Positions 1 through 28,356 of a stretch of 64,000 nucleotides of DNA are shown here, piece after piece. Below the pieces are notes generated by a model. The model was not told the DNA's origin. It did no database searches and saw nothing but the letters and a program-made list of their open reading frames with translations. The position numbers were made by a program, and so were the translations under genes. This DNA is from a virus, in IMG/VR virus record IMGVR_UViG_3300004481_000271, positions 1 to 64,000 of that record; one strand, 5' to 3'. Numbering within the stretch: position 1 is the stretch's first letter; every line of letters begins with the position of its first letter.

Positions 1-1054
1 GGGCGGCCACGGCGGCGCGGTTCTCCCGCTCGGCCCGGAAGGACACCCCGAGGAAGCCCCCGTCGTCCCCGAGCTCGGGCCGGAGACGGTAGGCGATCGG
101 AGCGTCGAGGTCCTCTCCGGCGGGCGCGGGCGGAGGGGCGGCGACGACCCTCGTCCTCGGCAGGAGCGCGAGCTTCTCCGGCGCCTCGCGGACGACCCGG
201 AGGACCGTCGCGAGATTCTCGTCCCGACGCGCCTCGAGAACCTCGGCAGCCTTCCGAGCGGCCATGCCCATATCGTGAAGCCGTCCCGCGACCGCCCAAC
301 TAGCGCACGTCTCGGCCTTCCGGCAAAGGAGGGACGAGACCGCGCGGAAGTCGGCCGGCGTCACCCCGGCAATGCGGACGGCACGGGCGACGGCGGCGTT
401 GTAGGCGGCCGGCGTTGCGTGGGCCCCGACGAGGGCGTCGGCGATCTGCCGATGAGCGTCCGAGGCGGTCTCGAGCGCCACTCCAAGAGCGTCGGCGGCC
501 TCGAGCTCGCCTCCGTCCTCGGCCTTCTCCTCGCCCTCGGGCGCCGGCGATCCGGAGGGCCCGCCGTCCGGGTCGTCGTCCCCGTCCTCGTCGGCGGTCT
601 CGAGCTCGGGCGCCGGAGCGGCGAGGATCGCCTCCCGCTCGGCCCGCTCGAGGGCATAGGAGACGTTGATGGTTTCGTAGAAGTCAACGTCGAAGTAATC
701 GGTCGAGGAATCCGAAGCGTCCCGATTGTAGGCGCGGACGATCTTCTTCATGGTCTCGAGCGCGGCCTGGGCGGTCGCGGTGTACCGCGGCGGAAGGTCG
801 AAGGCGTGCTTGTAGGGGTCCGCGGCGGACGCGCGGACGTGGGCGGGGTTCATCGCTCCGCCGGCGATCTCGACGATCTTCGCGCGGAGGGCGCAGCCCC
901 CCGAGAACCGCTCGATCTGCACGGAGACCTTCATCGCGGGGAGCTCGCCGGACTTGATCGCGGCGGCGATGTCCTTCCGGACGTCCTTCGCGATGTCCTT
1001 CACGTCCCGCCCCGCCTCGTACTTGCTGCCCCGAAACTCGTCTCGTCCCGTCAT
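1..1054 (-). CDS. LPD29-like (polyvalent-protein-associated domain) early protein, 3' end runs off window; absent from ORF track
   Basis: Manual translation from ATG 1054 after GGGAGG RBS: MTGRDEFRGSKYEAGRDVKDIAKDVRKDI...KVSVQIERFSGG...YNRDASDSSTDYFDVDFY, then acidic linker; frame open to base 2. Confidence 0.65.
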   Translation of the reverse strand, partial: MTGRDEFRGSKYEAGRDVKDIAKDVRKDIAAAIKSGELPAMKVSVQIERFSGGCALRAKIVEIAGGAMNPAHVRASAADPYKHAFDLPPRYTATAQAALETMKKIVRAYNRDASDSSTDYFDVDFYETINVSYALERAEREAILAAPAPELETADEDGDDDPDGGPSGSPAPEGEEKAEDGGELEAADALGVALETASDAHRQIADALVGAHATPAAYNAAVARAVRIAGVTPADFRAVSSLLCRKAETCASWAVAGRLHDMGMAARKAAEVLEARRDENLATVLRVVREAPEKLALLPRTRVVAAPPPAPAGEDLDAPIAYRLRPELGDDGGFLGVSFRAERENRAAVAA

Positions 1055-1073: not shown

Positions 1074-1153
1074 CTGTTATCGCATACCACGGGAGACCGC
1101 GCAAGGGAAAAACGACATCGCCCCGAAAAAAGATCCCGGGAGCGATCTCCCCT
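1074..1153 (-). promoter_or_regulatory. Early promoter cassette copy 1 (partial)
   Basis: GATGTCGTTTTTCCC-TTGCGC (1099-1104)-17 nt-GATAAC; shares the CGAAAAAAGATCCCGGGA block with copy 4. Confidence 0.65.
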
Positions 1154-1298
1154 ACCCATCGCAACCCGCGAGGCGGACGAGAAGAAGAAAGACGGCGAAG
1201 GCAAGGAAGCCCCCAACGACGGACGGGACAAGCTCGAGGATCGCCCAGTCGAGGGCCCGCTCGGTCAACGTGCGACGGTCTACCGGCTCGCGAGTCAT
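1152..1298 (-). CDS. Small membrane protein
   Basis: ATGA overlap with upstream gene; hydrophobic stretch LVPSVVGGFLAFAVFLLLV. Confidence 0.55.
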   Translation of the reverse strand: MTREPVDRRTLTERALDWAILELVPSVVGGFLAFAVFLLLVRLAGCDG

Positions 1299-1870
1299 CG
1301 GGACCTCCCTCCATGGACACCGGCCGGATGGGCAGAGCTCGGGACGGCGAAGCGCCATTGACGCCGGACGCACCGACCTTGACCGCCGAAGAGCTCGCCC
1401 GGTCCGAAGGAGTCGGCGGCGTCCTCCCGGCTCGGTTGTCGGACCTGGAAGACCCGCTTCGAGGCGGAGACGGCGCCCTCGCGGGCGAGGGTGAGGGCGC
1501 GGCGGCGGACCGTTTCGAGGACGACCCGAACGCCCCGAGCTCGGACGAGGGCGGCGAGGGTCTCGGTCGTGAGCCCGAGGGCGACGTCCGGCCCGCCGAA
1601 GCCGGTCCGGTCCTCGAGGACTCCGAGGATCGCCCCGTCGACGCGGGTCCGCTTCCGGGCCTTCTGCGGCGGAGCCAGGACCTCGAGGACGAGCTCCTCG
1701 GCCGACCGGTCCCGGACCGCCGAGGGCGCGAGACGACGGAGCTCCGCCTCGACGAGCCCGAGGGCGGCGTCGAGACCTGGGAGCGGGTCGCGAAGCCGGC
1801 GGGCGGTGATCGCCCGGTGAACCCTCGCAAGGGCGAGGAGGGCCCCAGAAGGTCGCCGGCGCCCCGTCAA
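1295..1870 (-). CDS. Hypothetical protein, possible winged-helix DNA-binding
   Basis: TTGA/ATGA coupling on both sides; LTTETLAALV...LETVRRRALTLAREGAV. Confidence 0.55.
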   Translation of the reverse strand: MTGRRRPSGALLALARVHRAITARRLRDPLPGLDAALGLVEAELRRLAPSAVRDRSAEELVLEVLAPPQKARKRTRVDGAILGVLEDRTGFGGPDVALGLTTETLAALVRARGVRVVLETVRRRALTLAREGAVSASKRVFQVRQPSREDAADSFGPGELFGGQGRCVRRQWRFAVPSSAHPAGVHGGRSR

Positions 1871-2154
1871 CGTCTCCCCCTCTCGGCGAGCCCGTGAGTC
1901 CGAAGGACCTCGTCGAGGGCGCCCTGGACGGCGTCGACGGCGTCAAGGAGCTCCTCGTCCCGGACGTCGCCCTTCTCGACGGTGTCGAGAAGCTCCTCGA
2001 GGAAGTCGGCGGACGACTCGAGAACCCATCCCCCCGCGGCAACGTGGCGGTCGAGCGGCGGGCGGCCGGAGGCGAGGGCCTCGAGGATGCACCGCGACTC
2101 CCCCGGGAGGTTCGCGAAGTCGTCGGCAAGCTCGAGGAGGGCGGCGAGGTTCAT
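1867..2154 (-). CDS. Hypothetical acidic protein
   Basis: ATG 2154 just downstream of CGAGCAGTAAC motif; genome-typical codons. Confidence 0.65.
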   Translation of the reverse strand: MNLAALLELADDFANLPGESRCILEALASGRPPLDRHVAAGGWVLESSADFLEELLDTVEKGDVRDEELLDAVDAVQGALDEVLRTHGLAERGRR

Positions 2155-2161
2155 CGCCTTC

Positions 2162-2172
2162 GTTACTGCTCG
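2162..2172 (-). promoter_or_regulatory. CGAGCAGTAAC motif (putative middle promoter)
   Basis: One of 7 copies, all just upstream of start codons. Confidence 0.6.
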
Positions 2173-2177
2173 GGCAG

Positions 2178-3251
2178 CTAGGCGGCGAGCTCGGCGACGG
2201 CGGCCTCGACCTCGGCGTCGGCCTGGGCGGCGTCGGGACCGGCGGCGGAGTCGTCGCAAGCGGTCGCGGGAGCGTAGTCACCGGAGAGGACCGTCTCCCA
2301 GCGGGGAGGGAGGACGAAGCCCCCGAGCTCCTCGAGCTTCGCCTGGATCGCGCGGAGCGTCCGGCCCTTCTCGACGGCCTGATCCCAGGACTTCGCCGGC
2401 CGGAGGGAGTGCTGGATCTTCTCCTCGGTCGCGGCCCAGCGGTCGAACTGCTCGGGGTTCGCCGAGGCGGCGACGAGGAGGTCCTCCTCGCTCGAGAAGA
2501 TGCAGCAAAGGCAGGAGAGCCGGCGGGAGCCGAGGTCGTAAGCGTAGTGATACTCGATCCCGGAGGCGAGGATGTCGCGCCAAACGTCGACCTCGGTCCA
2601 AGCGTGGATCGGGAGCCAGGTGTCGATGTGGACGTTCGCGTTGGAGCGCCGGACCTCGAAGGTCGGCCGGTCGCGGCGGGCGTCCGACTCCTCGGCGCGG
2701 ATTCCCTGGACGTCGAGGATACGGCAAGGGCGGGACTCGCCGGTCGCCTTCTTCCACTCCCGGGCGAGGGCGGTGAAGACAACCTGGATCGGGGCGGTCT
2801 TGAACTCGCCGGTGCAGTAGCGGACCGAAGGAGACATCCATCCCCCGATCTTCCCCTCGGACGCCATCGCGAGGGCCCGCCGCTCGGCGAAGTCGAGGAG
2901 GTCGCCGAAGACCTCGCCGGCCTTGTACTGCTTCCCGTCCTTCGAGGCGACCTTGCCGATCCGGGAGGTCTGGATGAACCGGCCGATCCCGTTCGCGGTC
3001 ATCTGTCGCTCGGCGACGAGGTGAGCGTCCGGCCACTCGACAACCTTCCCGAGGTCCGAGTGAATCGCGACGACGCGCCCGAGGACTCCCTCGGCCTTCG
3101 CTCGCTCGGCGGTGACGCGGGCGGCGGTCTGAGAGTCCTTCCCGCCGGAGGTCGACACGACGATCACGTCATAGTCGGCGAGGGAAGCGGGGCCAGCGGC
3201 GAGCTCGGGGGTCCGGGTCGTCGTCTCGGTCATCGTGTCCTCCGTCCTCAT
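2178..3251 (-). CDS. PAPS-reductase family PP-loop ATPase (DndC/CysH-like)
   Basis: STSGGKDS, RYCTGEFK, QGIRAEES, RLSCLCC motifs; start 3251 (leaderless) or 3233 (GGAGG RBS). Confidence 0.88.
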   Translation of the reverse strand: MRTEDTMTETTTRTPELAAGPASLADYDVIVVSTSGGKDSQTAARVTAERAKAEGVLGRVVAIHSDLGKVVEWPDAHLVAERQMTANGIGRFIQTSRIGKVASKDGKQYKAGEVFGDLLDFAERRALAMASEGKIGGWMSPSVRYCTGEFKTAPIQVVFTALAREWKKATGESRPCRILDVQGIRAEESDARRDRPTFEVRRSNANVHIDTWLPIHAWTEVDVWRDILASGIEYHYAYDLGSRRLSCLCCIFSSEEDLLVAASANPEQFDRWAATEEKIQHSLRPAKSWDQAVEKGRTLRAIQAKLEELGGFVLPPRWETVLSGDYAPATACDDSAAGPDAAQADAEVEAAVAELAA

Positions 3252-3415
3252 GCTTCTTTTATACGGTCTCTCCGGAGATAGCGCAAGAGAAAAACGACAC
3301 GGCGGCGAAAAAAGATCGCCCGAAGAGATCGCCCCGGACGCGGACGTCACGATTCCCAGTGTTTTATCGGGTAAAGTCGACCTCGGGCGGGAGCGATCTC
3401 TTCGGTCGTTTTCAG
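3231..3415 (-). promoter_or_regulatory. Early promoter cassette copy 2 (full length)
   Basis: TTGCGC (3281-3286)-17 nt-TATAAA (3258-3263), upstream T-tracts, 12-bp inverted repeat 3321-3332/3393-3404. Confidence 0.85.
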
Positions 3416-4104
3416 TGACGCGGGCGCCGAAGTCCGGGGATCTCGAGCTGCTCCCCGAGCTCGGAGCGACGCCTCGAGGACTTCCCCGGCGTCCAAGCCT
3501 CGAAGAGGATCGCGACGGACGGGAAGCCGGCAACGTCCCCGGGCTCGCCGGTCGGCTTGATGTGCCGGACGCGCCCCCGGAGGAAGTCGACGGCGCGGGT
3601 CGGGTAACGGAGACGGAGGACCCCGTCTTCGGACGTCCTGGCCTGGACGTAGCGGGCCCACCACCGTTTCCCGACCTTCGCGGGGAGGAGGGCGACGACG
3701 AGCTCGGCCCGGCCGGAGAGGACCTCGCGGACCGCCTTCGCGACCCAGAGCTCCTCGACGACCCCATAGGGCGGATTGACCCAGACCCGCCCCCGCCACG
3801 GGAGGGCGAGTCCGTCGTCCTCGACAGTGTAGTAGGTCGGGCAGACGTGGAGCTCGGCGGAGGCGGCGGCGTCGAGGTCGAAGGCTCCCCCGGCCCATCG
3901 GTCGGCGTAGACGCGGACGAGCTCCGGCGGCGTCCCCCATTCGACCGTCGCGGACGGGAGGAGGAGCGGCCCTCCCCGGCGGGAGGCGCCCTCGAGGAGC
4001 TCGCCGGCGGCCGGCGGGGTAGGTCGGGGCGGGGAAGCCCTCGGCGCCGTCTCGAAGCCGGAGAAGAGGGCGAGCTGGGGCTCGAGGTCGTCGTCGAATC
4101 TCAT
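3412..4104 (-). CDS. Phage N6-adenine DNA methyltransferase (Dam-like, PF05869 type)
   Basis: EWGTPP, FDLDAAAS, DDGL..PW.GRVWVNPPY, FLRGRV motifs. Confidence 0.88.
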   Translation of the reverse strand: MRFDDDLEPQLALFSGFETAPRASPPRPTPPAAGELLEGASRRGGPLLLPSATVEWGTPPELVRVYADRWAGGAFDLDAAASAELHVCPTYYTVEDDGLALPWRGRVWVNPPYGVVEELWVAKAVREVLSGRAELVVALLPAKVGKRWWARYVQARTSEDGVLRLRYPTRAVDFLRGRVRHIKPTGEPGDVAGFPSVAILFEAWTPGKSSRRRSELGEQLEIPGLRRPRH

Positions 4105-4745
4105 GGGCCCTCGAGGGAGCCTACCAGGGCGGCGGCGAGGACGTCGAAGGGGACACGAGCTCGGACGCGGGCGGCGACGCGGGTCGCCTCGGCGCCGAGG
4201 ACCGGGGAGCCCGTCGAAACCCAGCGGCGGTCGGCCCCCCCGTGGACGACCCCGGCTCCCCAGCGGGTCGCCTCGCGGACGGCCTCGAGCTTCTTCCCCG
4301 GCGAGGCGAGAACCCAGACCCGGGAGAGGGCGAGGAGGGCCCGCGCCTTCGGAGCGGGGTTCGGCCATGCCTTCGTCACGCGGTAGAGGGCGAGGCGAGG
4401 CTCGACGACGGCAGCCCGCGCCCCGGGCGGAGCTCCGACCGTCCGACCGAGGACGCGGACGAGGACCCCGGCCGTCGGATGAGGGACGGCCTTCGCCCAG
4501 ACCTCGGCGACGTCGACGAGGGCGAGCTCGAGCTCGCGGTCGAGCCCGGCAAGGAAGGCAAGGGCGATCATCGGGACGGGGTTCCCGTCGGTCCAGGCAG
4601 CCTCGAGCGGGGTCCTCCGCCGGAGTCCGCGGTCGAGGCGGAGCCAGCCCTCGACCTCCCAGGCGAGCTCGGGCCCGCCGAGGACGCGGAGCGGCCCGTC
4701 GAGGGCGCCGAGGCGACGGAGGGCGTCGAGGGCCTCGGCGGTCAT
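4101..4745 (-). CDS. Hypothetical protein
   Basis: ATGA-coupled on both sides. Confidence 0.6.
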   Translation of the reverse strand: MTAEALDALRRLGALDGPLRVLGGPELAWEVEGWLRLDRGLRRRTPLEAAWTDGNPVPMIALAFLAGLDRELELALVDVAEVWAKAVPHPTAGVLVRVLGRTVGAPPGARAAVVEPRLALYRVTKAWPNPAPKARALLALSRVWVLASPGKKLEAVREATRWGAGVVHGGADRRWVSTGSPVLGAEATRVAARVRARVPFDVLAAALVGSLEGP

Positions 4746-5257
4746 CGCGACCACACCGGAGAGCCGGCGGCAGCCTCGACGACTCCGCGGTCGAGGGTCT
4801 CGACGCGCGGGACGATCCCGACCTCCTTCGTCCAGCGGAAGGCGAGGCGAAGCCCTGGAGAGACGACGCGGGCGAGCCAAAGGGCGAGCGGCGGCCGGAC
4901 GACGGCGAGGGTGACGGAGGCGGGGAGCTTCCGTCCGAGGGAGCGGCGGCCGACCGACCAAAGGACGGACGTCTCGGTCCGCCAGATCGCCCCCTCCCCT
5001 CCCCAAGCGGTCGCGCGGTCGACCACCCCTTCCTCGAGGGTCGCGACGAGAAGGGCGAAGCCGTCCTCCGGCCGGAGCCTCCGGCCGAGGAAGCCGTCCT
5101 CTCCGACGGCGACGAGGGAGAGCGCCGGCTCCTCGGTCGCCAGGATGAGGAGCTCCGCCCCGAGGCGGTAGGCGGCGACAACCTCGGGCGCAAGCTCGCC
5201 CTCGAGGGCAAGCTCCTCGAGGAGGAGCTCGAGCTCCGTCGGTCGCCGGTCCGTCAT
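4742..5257 (-). CDS. Hypothetical protein
   Basis: ATGA-coupled; MTDRRPTELELLLEEL... Confidence 0.6.
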   Translation of the reverse strand: MTDRRPTELELLLEELALEGELAPEVVAAYRLGAELLILATEEPALSLVAVGEDGFLGRRLRPEDGFALLVATLEEGVVDRATAWGGEGAIWRTETSVLWSVGRRSLGRKLPASVTLAVVRPPLALWLARVVSPGLRLAFRWTKEVGIVPRVETLDRGVVEAAAGSPVWSR

Positions 5258-5541
5258 GCGTCGCCCCCTCCGCCGAGCCGCCAGACGGCGTCGATCGGGG
5301 CGAGGAGTCCGTGAAGCTCGGCGACGACCTCGTCGAAGCGGGAAGACCTCCTCCGCGTGAGTCCCTCGAGGGTCTCGACGAAGCCGAGGATCTGGCGAGC
5401 CTCGACGATCGTCTCGGGGCGACGTAGGCGGGCGACCTTCTTCTCGAGGCTCCCGACGAACCATCCGGACGCGCCCCCGGCGGCGGCCTCGCGACAGAGC
5501 TCGGCGAGGAGCTCGCCGGCGTCCTCGAAGACGGTCGGCAC
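5254..5541 (-). CDS. Hypothetical protein
   Basis: GTG start abutting upstream stop, GGAGG RBS. Confidence 0.6.
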   Translation of the reverse strand: MPTVFEDAGELLAELCREAAAGGASGWFVGSLEKKVARLRRPETIVEARQILGFVETLEGLTRRRSSRFDEVVAELHGLLAPIDAVWRLGGGGDA

Positions 5542-5963
5542 TAGACGACCTCCCCTCCGAGTCCGGCGATCGAGGCGGCGGCGTCGGCGGCCCGCTCGAG
5601 GCGGACGAGGAGGTCGCGGATCTCCTCGGGGAGCTCGACCCCGCGGTCGGGGAGGGACCGGAGGAGGACGGAAGTCCAGCGGGCGTGCCGGACGAGCTGG
5701 GAGCCGGTCGGCCGGAGGCAGACCCCGAAGCGGTGACCGGGGACGTGACGCGGGACGAAGAGGACCCGCTCCCCAGGAATCGCGAGACGGACGTCTCCCC
5801 CGCCCCCCCGCTCCGGCGGCCGGCGTCGGACCCCGTCGAGGTGATCGAGGAGCTCGAGGAGCCGGAGCCGTTCGTCCGGCCAGAGCTCCGGGTCGGCGGG
5901 CGGGAGGAGGAGCCAGGCGACGGCCCGACGGAGCCCCCCGTCGATGTCCTCCCGCAAGGTCAC
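5541..5963 (-). CDS. Hypothetical protein
   Basis: GTGA overlap with upstream gene. Confidence 0.55.
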   Translation of the reverse strand: MTLREDIDGGLRRAVAWLLLPPADPELWPDERLRLLELLDHLDGVRRRPPERGGGGDVRLAIPGERVLFVPRHVPGHRFGVCLRPTGSQLVRHARWTSVLLRSLPDRGVELPEEIRDLLVRLERAADAAASIAGLGGEVV

Positions 5964-6259
5964 GAGTCGAGCTTCTTCTTCGGCCTCCCCCGACGGCGCG
6001 GCGCCCCCTCCTCGGCGGCGGCCTTCCGCTCGGCGGCCTTCGCAGCCCTGGCGGCGCGCATCATGGCGGCGTGCTCGTCCGGGTAGGCGGCGGCGGCCCG
6101 CTCGAGCTGGGAGTGTAGATCCCCGACTCCGGCGGCGTGGTCGAGGACGAGCCGAATCCAGGTGATCAAGGGCATCCCTTGGCGGGCGGCGGAGTCGCGC
6201 CAGGCGGCGAGCTCCTCCTCGTTCGCCTTGATCGAGGTGCTTTCGTTGTAGAGTCCCAT
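5960..6259 (-). CDS. Ribbon-helix-helix-like DNA-binding protein with AT-hook-like tail
   Basis: TSIKANEEELAAWRDSAARQGMPLITWIRLVL; C-terminal RRRGRPKK. Confidence 0.65.
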   Translation of the reverse strand: MGLYNESTSIKANEEELAAWRDSAARQGMPLITWIRLVLDHAAGVGDLHSQLERAAAAYPDEHAAMMRAARAAKAAERKAAAEEGAPRRRGRPKKKLDS

Positions 6260-6275
6260 CGTTCCCTCTCCTCTC

Positions 6276-6286
6276 GTTACTGCTCG
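6276..6286 (-). promoter_or_regulatory. CGAGCAGTAAC motif (overlaps stop codon of GNAT gene)
   Basis: Exact copy upstream of ATG 6259. Confidence 0.6.
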
Positions 6287-7554
6287 AAGCCGTTGAAGCC
6301 CTCGGTCCCGACCCCCTCGGCGGCCGGACTCGCCCGAGCCCTCGTCCCGACGGCCTGGGCGCCTCGAAGAGCCTCGAGGTCCTCGCCGGCGACCGCGAGG
6401 TCGTCCTCGAGCTCCGCCCCTTCTCGGGCGTCCTGGGCGTCGGCGGCGACGTCCGCCTCGAGGTCCTCGCCGGCGGCCTCGGTCTCGGTCTCGGCGACGT
6501 CCGCCTCGAGGTCCTCGCCGGCGCCGGCGGGCGCCTCGGCGAAGAGGTTGCCCTGGCGAGGGTCGGCCGGCTCGACCGGCGCGGCCGGCTCGAAGACAAC
6601 GACCCGGCGGAGCTCCTCGAGGGAGAGCCTCGCCGGCGGCGGGGTCGGCTCGGCGGCGGGGAGCTCGATCGCCCTCGAGGCGACGAGCTTCCGGGTCGAC
6701 TTCGAGAGCCCCTTCTCCCAGCGGGTCTTCGGGGAGGTCGGGGCGACGTCGGTCCGCTCCCGGCCCTCGCGAGACCACGACCCGCCGGCGGAGCGGGCGG
6801 TCGGCGTCCAGCCCGCGGCAACGAGGGAGTGACCGCTCTCCTCGTCGAGGGTGTAGGTAACGAGGAGCTTGTAGCCGAGCTCGCGGGTCTTCTTCGCGGC
6901 GGCGGCGTAGAGCTTCGAGACCGCGTTTCGGCGGAGCTCCCGGTGACCCCAGACCGCGACGCGCGTCACTTCGAGGGCGTCCGGGTTCGCCTCGGCGAAG
7001 ACCCTCGAGACCGGGCGGCCGACGACGGCGACCCCGACCTTGACGCTCCCGTTGTAGACCGCGACCGAGAACTTGTGCCCCTGGGGGGCGGGATGGTGCG
7101 AATGGTGCGCGGCGACGTCGGAGAAGACCTCGTCCCGCCAGCCCTTCGGGGAGGCGGCCCGCTTGTGCCCCTTGCCGTCGGAGCCGGCGGGGACCGCGGG
7201 GTCGCGGACGACGAGCCTCGCGACGACGGTCCCGTCGCCCTCGCCGATGACCTCGAGGACCTCGGAGCTCGGGTCGATGATCGCGGCGACAACCTCGACG
7301 GGGAGCCCGTAGGCGTCGGCGTAGCCGTACCACTCGACGGCCTCGGCCTGGGCGGCGCAGCAAGGGCGCCAGGTCAAGAACCGCTCGCCATTCGCGCGGT
7401 CGACGCGGAGGTCGCATCCGAAGATCGCGTCCCCGTCGTCGTAGAGCCACTCGGTCCCGCAGTGCGGGCAAGTCCGGGCGTCGTCGTCGGCGGCGAAGAC
7501 ATCGGCGACCATCGCGGCGATCTCGTCTCGGGTCATCTTGCGAGCGGTGTCCAT
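6277..7554 (-). CDS. XF1762-family (Mom-related GNAT-fold) protein with N-terminal Cys-rich domain and acidic tail
   Basis: HHSHHPAPQGHKFS, GVAVVGRPVSR, LEVTR, SKLYAAA, LVTYTLDEESGHSLVAAGW; N-terminal CPHC...PCC. Confidence 0.8.
   Translation of the reverse strand: MDTARKMTRDEIAAMVADVFAADDDARTCPHCGTEWLYDDGDAIFGCDLRVDRANGERFLTWRPCCAAQAEAVEWYGYADAYGLPVEVVAAIIDPSSEVLEVIGEGDGTVVARLVVRDPAVPAGSDGKGHKRAASPKGWRDEVFSDVAAHHSHHPAPQGHKFSVAVYNGSVKVGVAVVGRPVSRVFAEANPDALEVTRVAVWGHRELRRNAVSKLYAAAAKKTRELGYKLLVTYTLDEESGHSLVAAGWTPTARSAGGSWSREGRERTDVAPTSPKTRWEKGLSKSTRKLVASRAIELPAAEPTPPPARLSLEELRRVVVFEPAAPVEPADPRQGNLFAEAPAGAGEDLEADVAETETEAAGEDLEADVAADAQDAREGAELEDDLAVAGEDLEALRGAQAVGTRARASPAAEGVGTEGFNGFEQ
6371..6522. 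repeat. Intragenic direct repeat encoding AGEDLEADVA
   Basis: 31-nt identical copies 6444-6474 and 6492-6522, partial copy 6371-6391. Confidence 0.85.
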
Positions 7555-7625
7555 GCCTTCTTTATACGGTCCCCGAGGGGACCTTTCAAGCGAAAAACGA
7601 CATCGGTCGCCGAGGGAGATCTCCT
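7552..7625 (-). promoter_or_regulatory. Early promoter cassette copy 3
   Basis: GATGTCGTTTTTCGC-TTGAAA (7584-7589)-GGTCCCCTCGGGGACCG-TATAAA (7561-7566)-6 nt-ATG. Confidence 0.85.
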
Positions 7626-7631
7626 CGCCGG

Positions 7632-8990
7632 TCATGCCGTCCTCCGGGAGGAGGAGCGGGCGCCCTCGAGGACGAGCTCCGCGGCGGCGACCCAGTCCGC
7701 GGGCGAGGGCCTCGAGCCGGCGGCCTCGCGGGCGGCGGCGTTGAAGTCGGTCCGGGTCCAGCCGAGGGCGGCGGCGGCGTCCTGGGCGGCCCGGTAGGCG
7801 GCCCGGAGCCCGGCGACGTCCTGGGCGTCCGCGTCGGCCTCGAAGTCCTGGGCGGCGTCCTGGGCAACCGGCGCGGCGGCCGGCGAGAAGACCGCCCGGA
7901 CCGCGGTCCGCTTCCGCCAGGTGACCGTCCGCTTCTCGGCGGCGGCGGCGTAGAGCTCGTCGAGGATCGAGACGACCCAGTCGCAGTCGATCGGGGCGTC
8001 GCCGTCCTCGTCCTCGCCGGTGAGCCAGGCGGAGGGCGAAGCGTAGCAGGCGGCGCGGTCGGAGCGGGTCACCGTCCGGAAGGCGGCGACGCGGTCGAGG
8101 AGCTCCTTCCGGGCGGAGCGGGTCACGAGCCACTCGTCGACGTTCTCGAGGATCGAGTCGGAGTAATCGAGCTCGCCCTCGACCCCCTCGCCCCAGAGCT
8201 CACCGCGGACGGCCTCGAGGGCGGCGTCGTGGGCGGCGGTGAGGGCGCGGGGTCCGCCTCCCGGGCCGTTCGTCCGACCGACGAGGGAGGTGATCGCGAC
8301 CGAGTCGCAGAAGACCGCGGTCAAGGGCGAGGCGGCCCGGACGGCGGCGACGGCGGCCTCGAAGCGGGGCGACTTCGGCCCGAGCCCGAGGAGGTGAACC
8401 GCGGCCGGACGGACGGTCGAGAGGAGCTCGGCGAGCTCCTCGGCCGACGTCTCGTCCTTCATCATCGGGACGGCGACGACGAAGTCCTCGAAGCCGAGGA
8501 TCTCGGCGGCCTTCCGGTTGAAGTCGACGAGGGAGAGGGCGCCCTTCTGATGCGCGACGAGGATGTTCGCGCCGAGGGCCCGGATCGTCCGGACGCGGTC
8601 GGCGAAGCGGGCGAGGCGGTCGAGGGTCTCGGCTTGATGGGCGACGCAGTCCGGGGCGACGGCGAAGAGCTGGGAGCCGAGGGAGCGGGCGAGCTCCTCG
8701 ACGGCGTCGAGGCGGGCGGCGAAGTCCTCGTCGGAGATCGGCGCGGTGATCGTCGGGACGCCGGCGGGGAAGGTGACCTCGGAGAAGGCTCCGGAGTCCA
8801 TGAAGACCTTCGTCCCGGAGCCGGCGAGTCCGGCGAGAACCTCGGCGGCGTCGAGGCGGAGCTCGACGATCGTCGCGCCGACGTTCATCCCGGCGTCGGA
8901 GAAGCCGAGGATCTCGCCCGGGTGATTCGAGCCGCTCGGGAAGTAGGTCACCGCGTCCGCCGTCCCGTTCATCGTGTCGTCCGTCCTCAT
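7632..8990 (-). CDS. tRNA-guanine transglycosylase (TGT)/DpdA-like protein
   Basis: VFMDSGAFS, APDCVAHQAET, HQKG, VHLLGLG, FCDS motifs in TGT-barrel order. Confidence 0.72.
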   Translation of the reverse strand: MRTDDTMNGTADAVTYFPSGSNHPGEILGFSDAGMNVGATIVELRLDAAEVLAGLAGSGTKVFMDSGAFSEVTFPAGVPTITAPISDEDFAARLDAVEELARSLGSQLFAVAPDCVAHQAETLDRLARFADRVRTIRALGANILVAHQKGALSLVDFNRKAAEILGFEDFVVAVPMMKDETSAEELAELLSTVRPAAVHLLGLGPKSPRFEAAVAAVRAASPLTAVFCDSVAITSLVGRTNGPGGGPRALTAAHDAALEAVRGELWGEGVEGELDYSDSILENVDEWLVTRSARKELLDRVAAFRTVTRSDRAACYASPSAWLTGEDEDGDAPIDCDWVVSILDELYAAAAEKRTVTWRKRTAVRAVFSPAAAPVAQDAAQDFEADADAQDVAGLRAAYRAAQDAAAALGWTRTDFNAAAREAAGSRPSPADWVAAAELVLEGARSSSRRTA

Positions 8991-9160
8991 GCTTCTTTTA
9001 TACGGTCCCCACGGGGACCTAGCAAGAGAAAAACGACATCGCCCCGAAAAAAGATCCCGGGAAGCGATCTCCCCTGGGTGGGCGGTCGGCGTTGTTTTCC
9101 AGTGTTTTATCGGGGCAAGTCGACTTCGGGGCGGAGAGATCTCTTCCGGGCGGTTTCCGG
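8970..9160 (-). promoter_or_regulatory. Early promoter cassette copy 4 (full length)
   Basis: TTGCTA (9020-9025)-GGTCCCCGTGGGGACCG-TATAAA (8997-9002); collinear blocks with copy 2. Confidence 0.85.
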
Positions 9161-9184: not shown

Positions 9185-10339
9185 TCAGGACGACGATCCG
9201 GCGGTCGCCCCGTAGGGCGTGCGGTCGGCGTTCCACGCCTCCCAGTCGGCGTCGGTGACCGACCGCCGACCGTTCGCCTCACGGCGGAGATAGTCCTCGA
9301 AGGGCTCGGGGTTCGCGAAGGGCCCGCGGTAGACCCAGAATTGCCAGAAGAGGTCGACGAGGGTCCGCGTCCAGAACTTCCCGACGAAGCGGTCCGTCCT
9401 CGAGAGCACCCGGAGCGGGGTGTAGCGTTGCGGGTAGACCTTGACCCCGAAGCGGCAGACCTCGCGCATCCGATAGTCAGCCTCCCTCGGGGTGTCCCGG
9501 AAGTTGAAGAGGGCGAGGACAAGCATATCCTCGGCCTTGACCCCGGCAGCGAGGAGGGTCTCGACCGCCCCTTGAAAACGCCCATCCTCCTCGATTCGGT
9601 CGAAGCCAATGCGAAGCCCCCGGTCGACGAAGCGGACGCGGGCGAGGAGCTCCGCGACCTCCGGCGTAACGTATTTGCAGTCGATCCCGGAGTCGATACA
9701 GATCGCCTTCCCCTCCCGATCGAGAACCTCGACGACGTTCCGAAGGTGCTCGGTCCCCCAGCTTGCGAGGTTGTTGTCGCCGAGCATGACGAAGGGACGC
9801 GGGACCGCGAGTTGACGCTCCCATCCGGGGACGATCCTCGGCTCCTTCTCGATCCGCCAGACGGCGCAGTATGGACAACGGTTCGGGCATCCCCGAGTTG
9901 TGAAAGCCCAGGTGTAATCGGCCCATTTCCCCTCGACTTGCCAGTCGATCTCGAGGTCCGGAAGAAGCTCGTCGAGCTCGCCAGAGACCCCGACGAAGAC
10001 GTCCGCCCCGGTAGTCTTCTCGATCGCCTCGGGAACGAGGGAGGCGGCCGGTCCCCCGACGATGACCCTCGAGCTCGGCGCCATCGCGCGGGCGGCCTGG
10101 ACCTCGGCGGAGAGGATCGGGAGGTCGTAGGTGAAGAGGGAGGAGACGAGGACGAGGTCCGCCGGCCGGCCGTCGAAGCTCCGCCCGAAGCGGACCTCGG
10201 AGCCGTTCTCGCGAAGGCGGCGGGCGAGCTTCGCAAGTCCGAGCGGGACATACTTCCGCCCCCAGGGAGGCTCGAGGAGGAAGACGGAGTCGGCGGCGTC
10301 CACGAGCTCGAGGAGCTCCCCCTCGGCGAGACGGGTCAT
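9185..10339 (-). CDS. Cobalamin-binding-domain radical SAM protein
   Basis: N-terminal YVPLGLAKLA...VIVGGPAASL; TTRGCPNRCPYC (CxxxCxxC); GDNNL. Confidence 0.9.
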   Translation of the reverse strand: MTRLAEGELLELVDAADSVFLLEPPWGRKYVPLGLAKLARRLRENGSEVRFGRSFDGRPADLVLVSSLFTYDLPILSAEVQAARAMAPSSRVIVGGPAASLVPEAIEKTTGADVFVGVSGELDELLPDLEIDWQVEGKWADYTWAFTTRGCPNRCPYCAVWRIEKEPRIVPGWERQLAVPRPFVMLGDNNLASWGTEHLRNVVEVLDREGKAICIDSGIDCKYVTPEVAELLARVRFVDRGLRIGFDRIEEDGRFQGAVETLLAAGVKAEDMLVLALFNFRDTPREADYRMREVCRFGVKVYPQRYTPLRVLSRTDRFVGKFWTRTLVDLFWQFWVYRGPFANPEPFEDYLRREANGRRSVTDADWEAWNADRTPYGATAGSSS

Positions 10340-11331
10340 CGGAGGACCTCCTCGAGTGCCCGACCGACGTTGTAGGTCACGGCGGGCGGGACGGCGGCGT
10401 CGAGCCAGCGGCGTTGACGGGTGAAGTCGCCGGCGAGGACGAAGTCGTCGGGGAAGCCGGCGAGGCGCTTCGCCTCGGCGAGGGCGACCCGCCCGAACCG
10501 GTGACGAAGCCCGCCCGGCCCCGTCGTCCGCTGGACCTCCGCCCCGGTCCCCTCGGCGAGGGCGAAGGCGGAAAGTCGCGGCGACGGCCGACGGACGGAG
10601 AGCCCGCGGTCGCGAAAGCCAACGACCCAGGGACAAGCCTCGGCGACCGAGCCCCTCGGCGAGACCGGCGCGGGGAAGGGCGGGTCGGCCCCGAGGTCCT
10701 CGCGAAGCCCGACCCCGAGGAGGAGCTTCTTCGCGACCGGCGCCCCGAGCCAGGACGTCTCGAGCTCCCGGAAGGCGACGCGGTAGCCCGGAGCGGCGAG
10801 GGCGTCCCGAGCGTCCCGGAGGTAGCCCCGGGCCTTCCCTCGGGCGAGGGCAGCGTCGCCCTCGAGGACGAAGGCTCGGGGACGGACCCCGGCGACGAGC
10901 TCGGCGAAGCCGGCGACGAGCTCGTCGGTCCACTCCTCGGCGGCGTCCTCCACCGGACCGGCCTCGGGGTTCTCCTCGTCCTCCTCCCGCTCGAGGCGGG
11001 GAGCAGGCGGCGCCCCCTCGAGGACGTCGAGCTCCCCCTCCCGAACCCCGGCGGCCTCGAGGAGGGACGCGGTGTCGCACTCGGCGAGGAACCTCGCCCG
11101 GAAGACCTCGGCGAGCGGTCCCTCCTCGGCGGGGACCTCGAAGCGGAGCTCGGGGAAGTTGCGGGCGAGGACGGCGCGGAGGAGCTCGTCGCGGTCGTGA
11201 GCCCAAGCGAGGCGGTAGCCCGCCCAGAGCCAGCCGACGGCCGACCCCCCGGCGCCAGCGAAGACGGAGACGACCCGGAGTCCGTTCCGACCGGCGGCGG
11301 AGCGGAGCTCCTCGAGGCTCGGCGGTGTCAC
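10336..11331 (-). CDS. DNA cytosine-C5 methyltransferase fold protein lacking catalytic residues
   Basis: Motif I FAGAGG and IX RLAGFPDDF kept; PPC becomes PPA, ENV becomes EGD, QxRxR lost, GNAV becomes DAAV; GTGA/ATGA coupled. Confidence 0.85.
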   Translation of the reverse strand: MTPPSLEELRSAAGRNGLRVVSVFAGAGGSAVGWLWAGYRLAWAHDRDELLRAVLARNFPELRFEVPAEEGPLAEVFRARFLAECDTASLLEAAGVREGELDVLEGAPPAPRLEREEDEENPEAGPVEDAAEEWTDELVAGFAELVAGVRPRAFVLEGDAALARGKARGYLRDARDALAAPGYRVAFRELETSWLGAPVAKKLLLGVGLREDLGADPPFPAPVSPRGSVAEACPWVVGFRDRGLSVRRPSPRLSAFALAEGTGAEVQRTTGPGGLRHRFGRVALAEAKRLAGFPDDFVLAGDFTRQRRWLDAAVPPAVTYNVGRALEEVLR

Positions 11332-14990: not shown

Positions 14991-15020
14991 GTTACTGCTC
15001 GGCGAGCTCGAAGGCGTCAA
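14991..15020 (-). promoter_or_regulatory. TTGACG-17 nt-CAGTAAC promoter (CGAGCAGTAAC motif)
   Basis: Motif 14991-15001 with TTGACG 17 nt upstream of CAGTAA. Confidence 0.65.
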
Positions 15021-17873: not shown

Positions 17874-17884
17874 GTTACTGCTCG
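17874..17884 (-). promoter_or_regulatory. CGAGCAGTAAC motif
   Basis: Exact copy upstream of GGGAGG RBS and ATG 17855. Confidence 0.6.
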
Positions 17885-21276: not shown

Positions 21277-22212
21277 TCAACCCTCCTCGCCCCCTGTTAC
21301 TGCTCGGCGCCCCGCCGACCGTCGGACCGCCTCGGCGAGGCGGGCGGGGTTGACGTCCCCAGGGTCCCGCTTCGGCGGGAGCTTGACCCAGGTCGCTCGA
21401 GCCCCGTCGAGCTCGAGGCGGGCGGCGAGCATCTCGGCCTCGAGCCAGGCGTCGCCGTCGAGGGCGACGACGATCGGACGGACCGCGGAGAGGAGGGCGG
21501 CGATCTGCCCCTCCGACGGCTTCCCGAGGAGGGCGACGACGTCCGGCCAGTAGGGGAGGGCGTCGAAGATCCCCTCGACGACGAGGAGCGGGTCCTCGGT
21601 CTCGACCGCCAGGGCGGCGGCGTTGAAGACGTGCGACTCGCGATCCATCCCGGTCGCCGAGAGGTAGCGGACCGCCGTCGACCGTCGATCCCAGACCCGA
21701 GCTTGCCAGCCGAGCCAGGTCCGGCCGTCGAGGTCGAGGACTGGAACGACGACCCTCCCCGCGGCGCGACCGCGGAGGCAGGCGCCGATCCGAGCTTCCT
21801 CGATCGTCTGGGCGGCGACCCCTCGCCGGCGGAGGTAGCCTCGGGCCGGCTCGAGCATGATGGAGCTCGAGCCAGGCTCCGCCCATAGCGGGGTGAAGTC
21901 CTCCGGCGGACCGAGCTCGGGATCTTGAGGAGGGTCGTCCCGGCGCCGTCGGCGCCCCCCTGGGAGCGGCGGCGCGATCTCGGCCTCGGCGCGGCCGACG
22001 TCGATCCGACCTCGAGCGGCGCAGCGGAAGCAATGGAAGTACCCCGTCCGGTCGTCGACGCCGAGGGCGCCCCGCCGGTCCGGCGAGCCCGTCCTCCCGG
22101 CGCAGAGCGGGCAGACCGCCCGGCCCCACCCCGTCGCCCCGAAGCGGTCGATCTCTTGAGCGGCCCGACGAACGAGCTCGAGCTCGACGCTAGAAGAGAT
22201 CCAGTGACCCAT
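21277..22212 (-). CDS. DNA primase (Zn finger + TOPRIM)
   Basis: CPLC...HCFRC; VVEGIFDAL; ALDGDA; KRDPGD. Confidence 0.9.
   Translation of the reverse strand: MGHWISSSVELELVRRAAQEIDRFGATGWGRAVCPLCAGRTGSPDRRGALGVDDRTGYFHCFRCAARGRIDVGRAEAEIAPPLPGGRRRRRDDPPQDPELGPPEDFTPLWAEPGSSSIMLEPARGYLRRRGVAAQTIEEARIGACLRGRAAGRVVVPVLDLDGRTWLGWQARVWDRRSTAVRYLSATGMDRESHVFNAAALAVETEDPLLVVEGIFDALPYWPDVVALLGKPSEGQIAALLSAVRPIVVALDGDAWLEAEMLAARLELDGARATWVKLPPKRDPGDVNPARLAEAVRRSAGRRAVTGGEEG
21296..21306 (-). promoter_or_regulatory. CGAGCAGTAAC motif
   Basis: Exact copy upstream of ATG 21272. Confidence 0.6.
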
Positions 22213-23531: not shown

Positions 23532-23542
23532 GTTATTGCTCG
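23532..23542 (-). promoter_or_regulatory. CGAGCAATAAC variant motif
   Basis: One mismatch; overlaps initiator stop codon, upstream of helicase ATG. Confidence 0.55.
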
Positions 23543-26941: not shown

Positions 26942-27787
26942 CTAGTCCTTCCTCCCCGGCGTTGGTCGGAGGAGCGCCTCCGGGTGTCGCCGGCCGAATT
27001 GCCATCGTGTGCGGAGACGAGCTCGGGTCTCCTGCGGATCGGTTGTCGCTGCCCCCAGAAGCCCTCGAGGAACCTTCGGGAAACTCGCGACGTAGGCAAG
27101 AACCTCCGCAAGCTCCGGAGCCTGTAGAGCCAGAAGGAGGGCGAGGCGGCGGAGTCGGTGCCAGCCCTGGGTCGCTCGAATGACCCGGAGAGCCCAGCGG
27201 GGAGCGAAGTCCGAGTCGTGGGCGGCCTTCCCGCGGAACCGTGTCGAGTCGGGGAGGAAGGATCCCGGAAGCGTCCGGACCTCGACCCCGGCAGCCTTGA
27301 GGAGCTTCGACCATTGCCATTGACCGACGCGAACGAAGCCCTCGGCGGCCTGTTCCTTCACCGTTCGTGTCACGAGGCAGAAGTCCGAGCCGAGGTGTCC
27401 GGCGCCGGCCATGAAGCCCAGACCGCAGAGCGGGCAGACTTGACGGGTCCGCACCCCGGCGAGGCGAGCGGTCGCGTCGGCGAGGAGGACCTCGTCGGAG
27501 ACCTCGGGCCCGTCCGTCCCGACGGCGGCGAGGAGGAGCTCCTCCGGCTCCGGGAGGGAAACCTCCTTCGGCTTGACCGACCCGGAGCGGAAGAGACATT
27601 CTGCCGAGCCGAGGTGCACCCTCCCCGTCTCAATCGTGGCGCCACAGTCGGGGCAGACGTAGCGGAAGCGGACCCCGAGGAGCCTCCCCTCCCCGTCGAG
27701 GGCGGCGACGTCCTCGGCCGTCCTGGGCGTCCGGAGCCCCGGCTCGAGCGGCCAGTCGGACGGGCGCCCTCGTCGACCGATGGTCAT
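26942..27787 (-). CDS. Hypothetical protein with two Zn-binding repeats
   Basis: CPDCG...HLGSAEC and CPLCG...HLGSDFC. Confidence 0.6.
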   Translation of the reverse strand: MTIGRRGRPSDWPLEPGLRTPRTAEDVAALDGEGRLLGVRFRYVCPDCGATIETGRVHLGSAECLFRSGSVKPKEVSLPEPEELLLAAVGTDGPEVSDEVLLADATARLAGVRTRQVCPLCGLGFMAGAGHLGSDFCLVTRTVKEQAAEGFVRVGQWQWSKLLKAAGVEVRTLPGSFLPDSTRFRGKAAHDSDFAPRWALRVIRATQGWHRLRRLALLLALQAPELAEVLAYVASFPKVPRGLLGAATTDPQETRARLRTRWQFGRRHPEALLRPTPGRKD

Positions 27788-28356
27788 CCGGCAAGCTCGC
27801 GGAGGCGGTCGTCGGCAACGAGGGCCTCGAGGGCGATCCGCTTCCTCGTCCGGACCTCCTCGACGGGAACCCCGAGGGAGCCGGCGGTCCCTCGGACCGT
27901 CGCCTCGCCGAGGAGGATCGAAAGGATCTCCCGGCCCCCGGTCGCCTCGACGACCTCGCGAAGGCGGCGGTAGGCGCGGGTTCGGTCAATGACCCCCTCG
28001 AGACCGCCGAGGTCCTCGAGGACCTCGCGGTCGTCGGGGAGCTCCTCCGGAAGCTCGGATGTCCCGGCGGCGAGGAGCCTCCGGGCGTTGTGGCGGCCGG
28101 CGTGGACCGGAGCCCCCGCGTAACAGACCGCCTCGAAGAGGGCGACGTTGATCGCCCTGTAGACGTAGGTCGAGAGCTTCGCCGGACCCCTCGACCGGAA
28201 GGTCCTCCGGGCGGCAGCCTCCGCGAGGGCGGCAACCTGGAAGAGGTCCTCCCGGTCGGCCCTCCCCGGGAACTTCTTGACGTAGGTCGAGACGAGAGCC
28301 CAGGTCATCCGGCGGATCTTCTCGTCTTCGGTCCTCGGTCTATCCTTCCCCTTCAT
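27784..28356 (-). CDS. Phage sigma70-family RNA polymerase sigma factor
   Basis: Region 2-like REDLFQVAALA...F...KLSTYVYRAI; region 4-like TVRGTAGSLGVPVEEVRTRKRIAL. Confidence 0.78.
   Translation of the reverse strand: MKGKDRPRTEDEKIRRMTWALVSTYVKKFPGRADREDLFQVAALAEAAARRTFRSRGPAKLSTYVYRAINVALFEAVCYAGAPVHAGRHNARRLLAAGTSELPEELPDDREVLEDLGGLEGVIDRTRAYRRLREVVEATGGREILSILLGEATVRGTAGSLGVPVEEVRTRKRIALEALVADDRLRELAG

Follow-up and report, generated by a model that had tools for sequence, protein, structure and literature searches.

The stretch of DNA analysed here (the window) corresponds to bases 1-64000 of the 108,941-bp virus record IMGVR_UViG_3300004481_000271 of IMG/VR, which has a guanine-plus-cytosine (G+C) content of 70%, and its first 9 kb carry a family of repeated promoter-like cassettes that are the subject of this report. 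Almost all genes of the record lie on the minus strand and they include genes for an HK97-type capsid protein, a Phage_portal protein, a Mu-F-like protein and RecA, as well as for a family A polymerase fused to UDG and for gp32-like and SbcCD-like proteins. The polymerase is at most 37% identical to that of any GenBank phage. An earlier reading of the window, hereafter the original prediction, had likened the cassettes to the promoter-containing repeats of the T4 superfamily. Such repeats, the promoter-early stem-loops (PeSLs), are indeed documented (PMC2839356, PMC4122927), but the phage itself, judged by its HK97-type capsid, Mu-F-like protein and family A polymerase, is not of the T4 superfamily and belongs to an unrelated lineage. 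Protein-guided searches of IMG/VR with the polymerase, RecA, the radical SAM protein (rSAM) and the TGT-like protein described below recovered two short contigs only (L014 and L015), which contain replication genes and lack the cassette region. Both ends of the record cut through genes (window 1-1054 and record 108516-108941), and as the end gene is out of frame when the ends are joined directly, a few bases may be missing or these may be the true ends.

Cassettes were searched with the pattern GTCGTTTTTC-N2-TTG-N20-TATAAA, allowing up to three mismatches, with 100 dinucleotide shuffles as control. Four matches were found in the window, all on the minus strand (1076-1116, 3258-3298, 7561-7601 and 8997-9037), and none in the shuffles, in agreement with the four copies first proposed. 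Four is nevertheless not the size of the family, since the whole record holds nine copies (c1 to c9) with their anchors, the G of GTCG, at 1116, 3298, 7601, 9037, 87672, 88375, 89257, 94596 and 95449; five of them thus lie beyond the window, at 87.6-95.4 kb. No tenth copy, degenerate or otherwise, was found when the record was searched with a profile built from the nine. Every copy is located on the minus strand, in an intergenic region, directly 5' of a gene and in the same orientation as that gene, none being on the other strand. All nine fall into two clusters, at 1-9 kb and 87-95 kb, neither of which is part of the structural or replication block, and the stop codon of the upstream gene is found 30-147 nucleotides (nt) before the anchor in c1-c5, c8 and c9. 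Elsewhere, the cassette pattern gave two unrelated low-GC matches only in IMG/VR, its strict form gave none in JGI metagenomes, blastn of the cassette gave none among GenBank phages, and Rfam returned no match for window 1-12 kb or for the host loci discussed below. A single cassette-like copy was seen on the minus strand of a 2.5-kb groundwater contig of 68% G+C (L022:1650-1800), before a small cysteine-rich gene; it reads T7, GTCGTTTTTCTC, TTGCGC, 17 nt and TATATT, and the contig is without protein similarity to the phage.

The stretch shared among copies varies from 95 to 185 nt. In the window, all on the minus strand, c1 is of the short form (1058-1153), c2 (3231-3403) and c4 (8970-9146) are of the long form and c3 (7552-7631) has neither terminator nor T-run. 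The alignment of c2 with c4 is collinear for about 185 nt and takes in CCCGATAAAACACTGG and GAAGTCGAC, as had been noticed at the outset, and the same long form was also found in c7 and c9. In these four copies a module of about 75 nt comes first and directly follows the stop codon of the preceding gene. It occupies 3341-3403 and 9075-9146 of the window and, in the record, 89258-89364 and about 95450-95548, and it contains GAAGAGATC (9146-9138 in c4), a GTCGAC palindrome and the invariant CCCGATAAAACACTGG (3371-3356 in c2, 9114-9099 in c4). No further copy of this module was found by a pattern scan of IMG/VR and it had no match in Rfam. It was not called a structured RNA, as its consensus fold is weak (-13.6 kcal/mol) with two covarying pairs among four sequences.

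A hairpin with a variable stem sequence follows, and then GATC with a run of six or seven T. Both features are present in eight of the nine copies and missing in c3; in the window the hairpin lies at 1151-1138, 3340-3317 and 9074-9059 and the GATC with T6 at 1135-1126, 3317-3308 and 9056-9047 (c1, c2 and c4, respectively), and a consensus scan flagged these three copies as terminator-like. The element that the original prediction had given as CGAAAAAAGATC has to be corrected, as on the coding strand it is GATC and a T-run after a hairpin, a terminator-like arrangement. Enrichment of GATC was rejected as a special feature, this tetramer being abundant genome-wide (895 sites). Located some 20 nt above the GTCGTTTTTCTC block in these eight copies, the GATC-T6/7 also makes an A/T-rich upstream tract within a genome of 70% GC.

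Between the T-run and GTCGTTTTTCTC there are 8-9 variable bases. GTCGTTTTTCTC is the best conserved block of the cassette and adjoins TTGnnn in all nine copies; the cassette thereby has two T-tracts, which are in phase with each other. In the window, GTCGTTTTTC occupies 1116-1107, 3298-3289, 7601-7592 and 9037-9028, and it is followed by the -35 boxes TTGCGC (1104-1099 in c1 and 3286-3281 in c2), TTGAAA (7589-7584 in c3) and TTGCTA (9025-9020 in c4). The spacer is exactly 17 nt in every copy, and the -10 box is TATAAA, TATAAC or GATAAC across the family, being TATAAA in c2 (3263-3258), c3 (7566-7561) and c4 (9002-8997) and GATAAC in c1 (1081-1076), where a variant had rightly been noted. The spacer holds a G/C-rich dyad, GGTCyCC-N2-4-GGrGACC, that is perfect in c3 (GGTCCCC-TC-GGGGACC) and reads GGTCCCC-GT-GGGGACC in c4. 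Its predicted folding energy ranges from -3 to -13 kcal/mol, with -11 to -13 kcal/mol in c3-c5 and weaker values in the other copies. It is also the least conserved part of the cassette, degenerate in c1, c2 and c6, with stem changes that are partly compensating. The composition and spacing of these parts support the view that the cassettes are composite regulatory elements of sigma70-type geometry.

In eight of the nine copies six bases separate the -10 box from an ATG, which thus begins 7 nt after the box and each time reads in frame and without interruption into the gene that follows. The copy without an ATG at the predicted +1 is c1, in which the ATG at 1054 stands behind a leader containing GGGAGG. 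In four copies AGGACGGAGGACACG-ATG comes next, providing a GGAGGA ribosome-binding site and a second ATG; in c2 the two ATGs lie at 3251-3249 and 3233-3231, and in c4 at 8990-8988 and 8972-8970. In c3 the first ATG (7554-7552) is followed at the same 18-nt spacing by a second one that has no ribosome-binding site, and c7 has no second start. The shared first codons MRT(E/D)DTM reported for the second and fourth copies were recovered as ATG-AGG-ACG-GA(G/C)-GAC-ACG-ATG in both, and this segment may be either translated, as the N-terminus encoded by a leaderless message, or left untranslated as a 5' leader that bears a strong ribosome-binding site. At c3 the leaderless reading is favoured by the closest Mom-like homolog (P0123, 61%), which begins at the residue aligned to the first ATG. 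For the same reason, and because its extra 27 codons are poor in third-position G+C in the part that crosses the cassette, the 452-amino-acid gene that the source calls through c3 is unlikely. Finally, the identity of c2 and c5 runs six codons (MTETTT) into otherwise unrelated proteins; the homology between copies extends through the leader and, in this pair, into the coding sequence, in line with the portable promoter with translation start that had been proposed.

All genes headed by the window copies are encoded on the minus strand. The c1 gene (1-1054) encodes at least 351 amino acids, runs off the record end and matches PHROG 1926, annotated as released from the phage upon host infection (E 1.4e-7); it had no match to a Pfam family. 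The c2 gene (2178-3233) encodes a member of the PAPS-reductase/PP-loop family (Pfam PF01507, E 1.8e-9; PHROG 424, E 3e-30), and three small genes separate it from c1. The c3 gene (6277-7554) encodes a Mom-like DNA-modification protein (PHROG 1384, E 2.9e-24; Pfam Mom, E 0.0046, below the cut-off), with six small genes and a Dam methylase (3412-4104) between it and c2. The c4 gene (7632-8972), the only one bounded by two cassettes (c4 and c3), encodes a protein that found no sequence match in Pfam, PHROG or the PDB. It carries the family motifs DSGAFSE, APD and HLLG, and its AlphaFold2 model (predicted local distance difference test score, pLDDT, 89.6) has tRNA-guanine transglycosylase (TGT) as top Foldseek matches (E 6e-5, template-modelling score 0.33-0.40). 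The PAPS-reductase, Mom-like and TGT-fold assignments made earlier for the window are thus retained, and that of LPD29 to the c1 gene is not. In the same way, the claim that each copy heads a modification or anti-defence gene holds for three of the four window copies; the five copies beyond the window head proteins of 61-245 amino acids without confident family match. The unit headed by c5 also encodes a serine recombinase of 237 amino acids (record 86665-87378, L012:2665-3378, minus strand) with a Resolvase domain (E 5e-36) and the start of a Recombinase domain; it could possibly be the integrase of a temperate phage, perhaps truncated or split.

The c4 and c3 genes (window 6277-8972) correspond in other genomes to a single fused protein of 580-734 amino acids (P0105, P0085, P0019 and P0074); in P0105 the TGT-like part spans residues 12-290 and the Mom-like part residues 315-586. 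These fusions indicate that the terminator-less c3 would be an internal promoter inside a functional pair. The c3 gene is then one half of such a pair and not a free plug-in. Adjacent or fused TGT-like and Mom-like domains suggest a two-step pathway of DNA base modification. In parallel, homologs of the B12-binding radical SAM protein encoded at window 9185-11331 are fused to a C5 DNA methylase domain in P0168, P0179, P0187 and P0202, which matches an adjacent gene pair here.

Another short repeat, CGAGCA(G/A)TAAC, was observed in ten minus-strand copies in all, at window 2162-2172, 6276-6286, 14991-15001, 17874-17884, 21296-21306 and 23532-23542 and at 93.7, 97.1, 104.0 and 107.1 kb of the record. 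In four copies the TAA of the repeat terminates the upstream gene (the protein ending in ...EQ), in two it is in frame 15 nt past a TAG stop, and at most sites a ribosome-binding site and start codon lie 7-25 nt downstream. In addition, GAGCAGTAAC is retained at two gene junctions of a 67%-related contig (L014:665-672 and 6244-6251). This repeat resembles an element of gene junctions more than a plain promoter.

The nine cassettes are mosaics of one another. When the informative sites were taken two by two, 124 of the 231 pairs showed all four combinations and failed the four-gamete test, and compatibility was higher between neighbouring sites than in permuted order (0.411 vs 0.537, p=0.0007); together these are the signature of exchange between copies and not of repeated mutation. 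For instance, the copies that c1 groups with are c4 immediately before GTCG, c2 and c9 in the -35 region and c6 in the -10 block; for c9 they are first c7, next c1 and c2, and last c5 and c8; and the leader of c2 equals those of c5 and c8. The mosaic boundaries are located at several places along the cassette. The closest database relatives of three consecutive genes differ in identity, with 73% for the rSAM protein, 91% for the TGT-like protein (32 contigs, up to 15 kb) and 61% for the Mom-like protein, and the steps, at gene resolution only, fall at c4 and c3. This pattern fits a replacement of the cassette-bounded TGT-like gene. Of the shuffling by recombination between repeats that the original prediction had put forward, segment exchange among the copies is supported by the mosaics, and the capture and shuffling of genes by the cassettes is an indirect inference from the mosaics and the identity steps.

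The upstream half of the cassette has a counterpart in bacterial chromosomes. A scan with its most conserved upstream part, GATCTTTTTT-N9/10-GTCGTTTTYC (20 imposed bases), matched about 17 peat or bog contigs and at least seven genomes of Acidobacteriaceae or Terracidiphilus species, all at one orthologous element. The half made of GATC-T7-C, 8 nt and GTCGTTTTTCTCTTGAC is identical to that conserved Acidobacteriaceae promoter. Beyond the imposed bases, the host sites read on with TCTTGACA, 17 nt and TATACA, with a hairpin upstream, so that the match covers 29 fixed bases at the same offset and with the same 17-nt spacing to a TATAnn box. As a random 20-base match would be followed by TCTTGAC in only about 6 in 100,000 cases, the correspondence is taken as real, and it supports the view of the cassette as a promoter of host RNA polymerase with an upstream element. 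On the side driven by the host promoter, there is a gene for a lysine/alanine-rich peptide of 24-26 amino acids with its own terminator downstream. The whole unit, seen at L059:4186-4395 as well as in L044, L051, L053, L056 and the peat contigs, consists of a terminator hairpin, the promoter, a 60-nt leader, the peptide MATKKAAKKPAKK... and a terminator. Each of four Acidobacteriaceae genomes searched whole contained exactly one such site, with one-mismatch matches at control level, which argues that the element is not a generic motif of those genomes; on the same grounds GTCGTTTTTC was rejected as a general promoter feature of candidate hosts. A looser version of the element was found in a Vicinamibacteria genome (L046).

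These matches hint at an Acidobacteriota host for the phage. We propose tentatively, as a possibility that falls short of being the probable one, that the cassette is a copy or close mimic of the Acidobacteriaceae peptide-gene promoter, multiplied nine-fold and fused to a leaderless start. In that case GTCGTTTTTCTC and the T-run would be bound by a specific host factor, or would make up an UP element of unusual strictness, which the phage would exploit, and the phage lineage would be tied to Acidobacteriota. Relatives of the portal protein (48-52%) were found in about 7 of 401 sampled Myxococcota, some in large contigs, in 2 of 401 Acidobacteriota and in none of 401 Pseudomonadota. In Myxococcota and Acidobacteriota genomes, the relatives reached through the portal share the structural module only and are devoid of cassette copies. 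The Myxococcota elements G793:C24:74-94 kb and G683:C23:147-177 kb (L123, L124, L129, L130) are 30-60% identical from portal to tail to 37-82 kb of the record, and their other modules are unrelated.

We consider it fairly probable that the repeats are PeSL-type terminator-promoter-leader cassettes, by which the accessory region is split into transcription units that have promoters of their own, are insulated from one another and are read by the host RNA polymerase. The hairpin and T-run would end the upstream unit, with the T-run doubling as the far part of an UP-like element. Transcription would start at or next to the first ATG and give leaderless or short-leader messages, and the spacer dyad would act either as an attenuator stem-loop, as in PeSLs, or as an operator for coordinated switch-off. 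Since the copies share 95-185 nt, they may well recombine with one another, and such events would move, delete or replace the intervening genes along with a ready promoter and start codon. Several points weigh against this explanation. Promoter, terminator and leaderless start are sequence predictions, and the last base of the -10 box is C or A in every copy, never the usual T, as a result of which a consensus sigma70 scan calls none of the nine. The stepwise identities are resolved per gene and depend on sampling, contigs of IMG/VR and JGI lack the exact motif, save for the look-alike of L022, and c3 sits within a functionally linked gene pair. As for the host, the Acidobacteriaceae loci have 58-63% GC vs 70% in the phage, a difference of 7-12 points, and the structural module is common to the phage and Myxococcota prophages. 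Promoter function and gene shuffling by the cassettes are well motivated but unproven.

The dyad lends itself to another explanation, which we regard as possible if rather unlikely, namely that the cassettes are repressor-controlled promoters of a temperate phage, alike because they answer to one regulator and not because they recombine. As an operator the dyad would be well placed to block the polymerase, and a temperate life style is suggested by the serine recombinase of the c5 unit together with the structural module shared with integrated Myxococcota prophages. However, the dyad is the least conserved part of the cassette, and its partly compensating stem changes fit a stem-loop better than a fixed protein site. 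Moreover, T-runs, leader and first codons are conserved too, well outside the reach of an operator, and the mosaics show that exchange did occur. Repressor control is compatible with the PeSL-type reading and does not exclude it.

The missing final T of the -10 box could also mean that the cassettes are middle and not early promoters, read by a sigma factor or polymerase of the phage itself. A 190-amino-acid protein encoded at window 27784-28356, with a weak match to Sigma70 region 2 (E 6e-4, below the Pfam cut-off), is a possible phage sigma factor. We hold this explanation to be improbable, because the TTG of the -35 box at 17 nt and the chromosomal host promoter, which matches over 29 fixed bases and also has a TATAnn box, speak for host polymerase and the gene of the candidate sigma factor belongs to the replication block, at a distance from all cassettes.

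Dedicated site-specific shuffling of the integron or shufflon kind, with the dyad as crossover site of the serine recombinase, appears very unlikely, even though genes are flanked by dyads in direct repeat, with centres of 2-4 nt, and the recombinase gene lies under c5. The dyad centres differ between copies (TC, GT, GG, AG and GGC), which serine recombinases do not tolerate, and the several mosaic boundaries do not converge on one point. Moreover, neither a tyrosine integrase nor an attC-like structure was found, the only recombinase being the serine one, and a promoter heads each unit, in contrast to the promoterless cassettes of integrons, which depend on one common promoter. The least credible explanation is a small mobile element similar to a miniature inverted-repeat transposable element (MITE) with promoter likeness by chance. 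The nine dispersed copies with sharp edges and two length classes speak for it, but they show no terminal inverted repeats or target-site duplications at their aligned edges, come with no evident transposase, and all point the same way, each with a stop codon before it and a start codon after it and with the ATG in frame.

With the repeats seen as PeSL-type cassettes, this kind of regulatory element would extend to a phage lineage unrelated to T4 that probably infects poorly studied high-GC soil bacteria, and the exchange of segments among copies could be read from a single genome. The predicted promoters would drive a DNA-modification cluster with TGT-like, Mom-like, Dam and PAPS-reductase-like members, the exchange of which would be a route for swapping anti-restriction functions. 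The identity with the Acidobacteriaceae promoter provides a testable host clue and a candidate strong promoter with upstream element in a phylum that has almost no promoter data.

PeSLs were described in the T4-type phages RB49/phi1, T4/PST and KVP40/nt-1 (Arbiol et al. 2010, PMC2839356; Comeau et al. 2014, PMC4122927). They are about 100 bp of conserved sequence found in variable regions before orphan genes, and they combine a sigma70-like early promoter, an A/T-rich tract above the -35 box, a stem-loop, often G-rich then C-rich and mostly between -35 and -10, and a ribosome-binding site with start codon at the 3' end (PMC2839356, PMC4122927). Promoter and terminator activity, insertions and deletions between relatives and mini-circles have been shown for them (PMC2839356, PMC4122927). 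The present cassettes are alike in their sigma70-like boxes, A/T-rich tract, G/C stem-loop in the spacer and ribosome-binding site with start codon at the 3' edge, as well as in a 5' edge marked by the preceding gene's stop codon. They resemble PeSLs also in having about 100 nt of conserved sequence, repeated in accessory regions before mostly unknown small genes, with signs of recombination between copies. On the contrary, they come from a phage of 70% GC that is not T4-type (a difference in context more than in mechanism), in nine copies vs about 50, with a separate upstream hairpin and T-run in eight of the nine and an extra 75-nt module in four; they have an ATG at the predicted transcript start and a -10 box ending in C or A, and their promoter and terminator functions are predicted from sequence.

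PeSL-like motifs made of a TATA box and inverted repeats are also mentioned for the haloarchaeal virus HGTV-1, as cited in PMC3950731. As far as that mention goes, a conserved motif with promoter and dyad is found before most of the genes along one side of the genome of a tailed virus outside T4, with proposed roles in regulation and shuffling, as here; the promoter is of archaeal type, and the motifs are set beside the cassettes by description only.

The Acidobacteriaceae peptide-gene promoter has the parts of the phage cassette in the same order and with the same spacing, with GATC-T7-C, 8 nt, GTCGTTTTTCTCTTGAC, the 17-nt spacer and TATAnn preceded by a hairpin. It differs in being single-copy, in the absence of a G/C dyad from its spacer, and in a 60-nt leader in place of an ATG at +1. 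PeSL-type cassettes are, on these comparisons, a known kind of phage element; what appears new here is the phage lineage and the upstream half identical to an Acidobacteriaceae promoter, and this specific identity, together with the ATG at the predicted transcript start and the 75-nt upstream module, is worth following.

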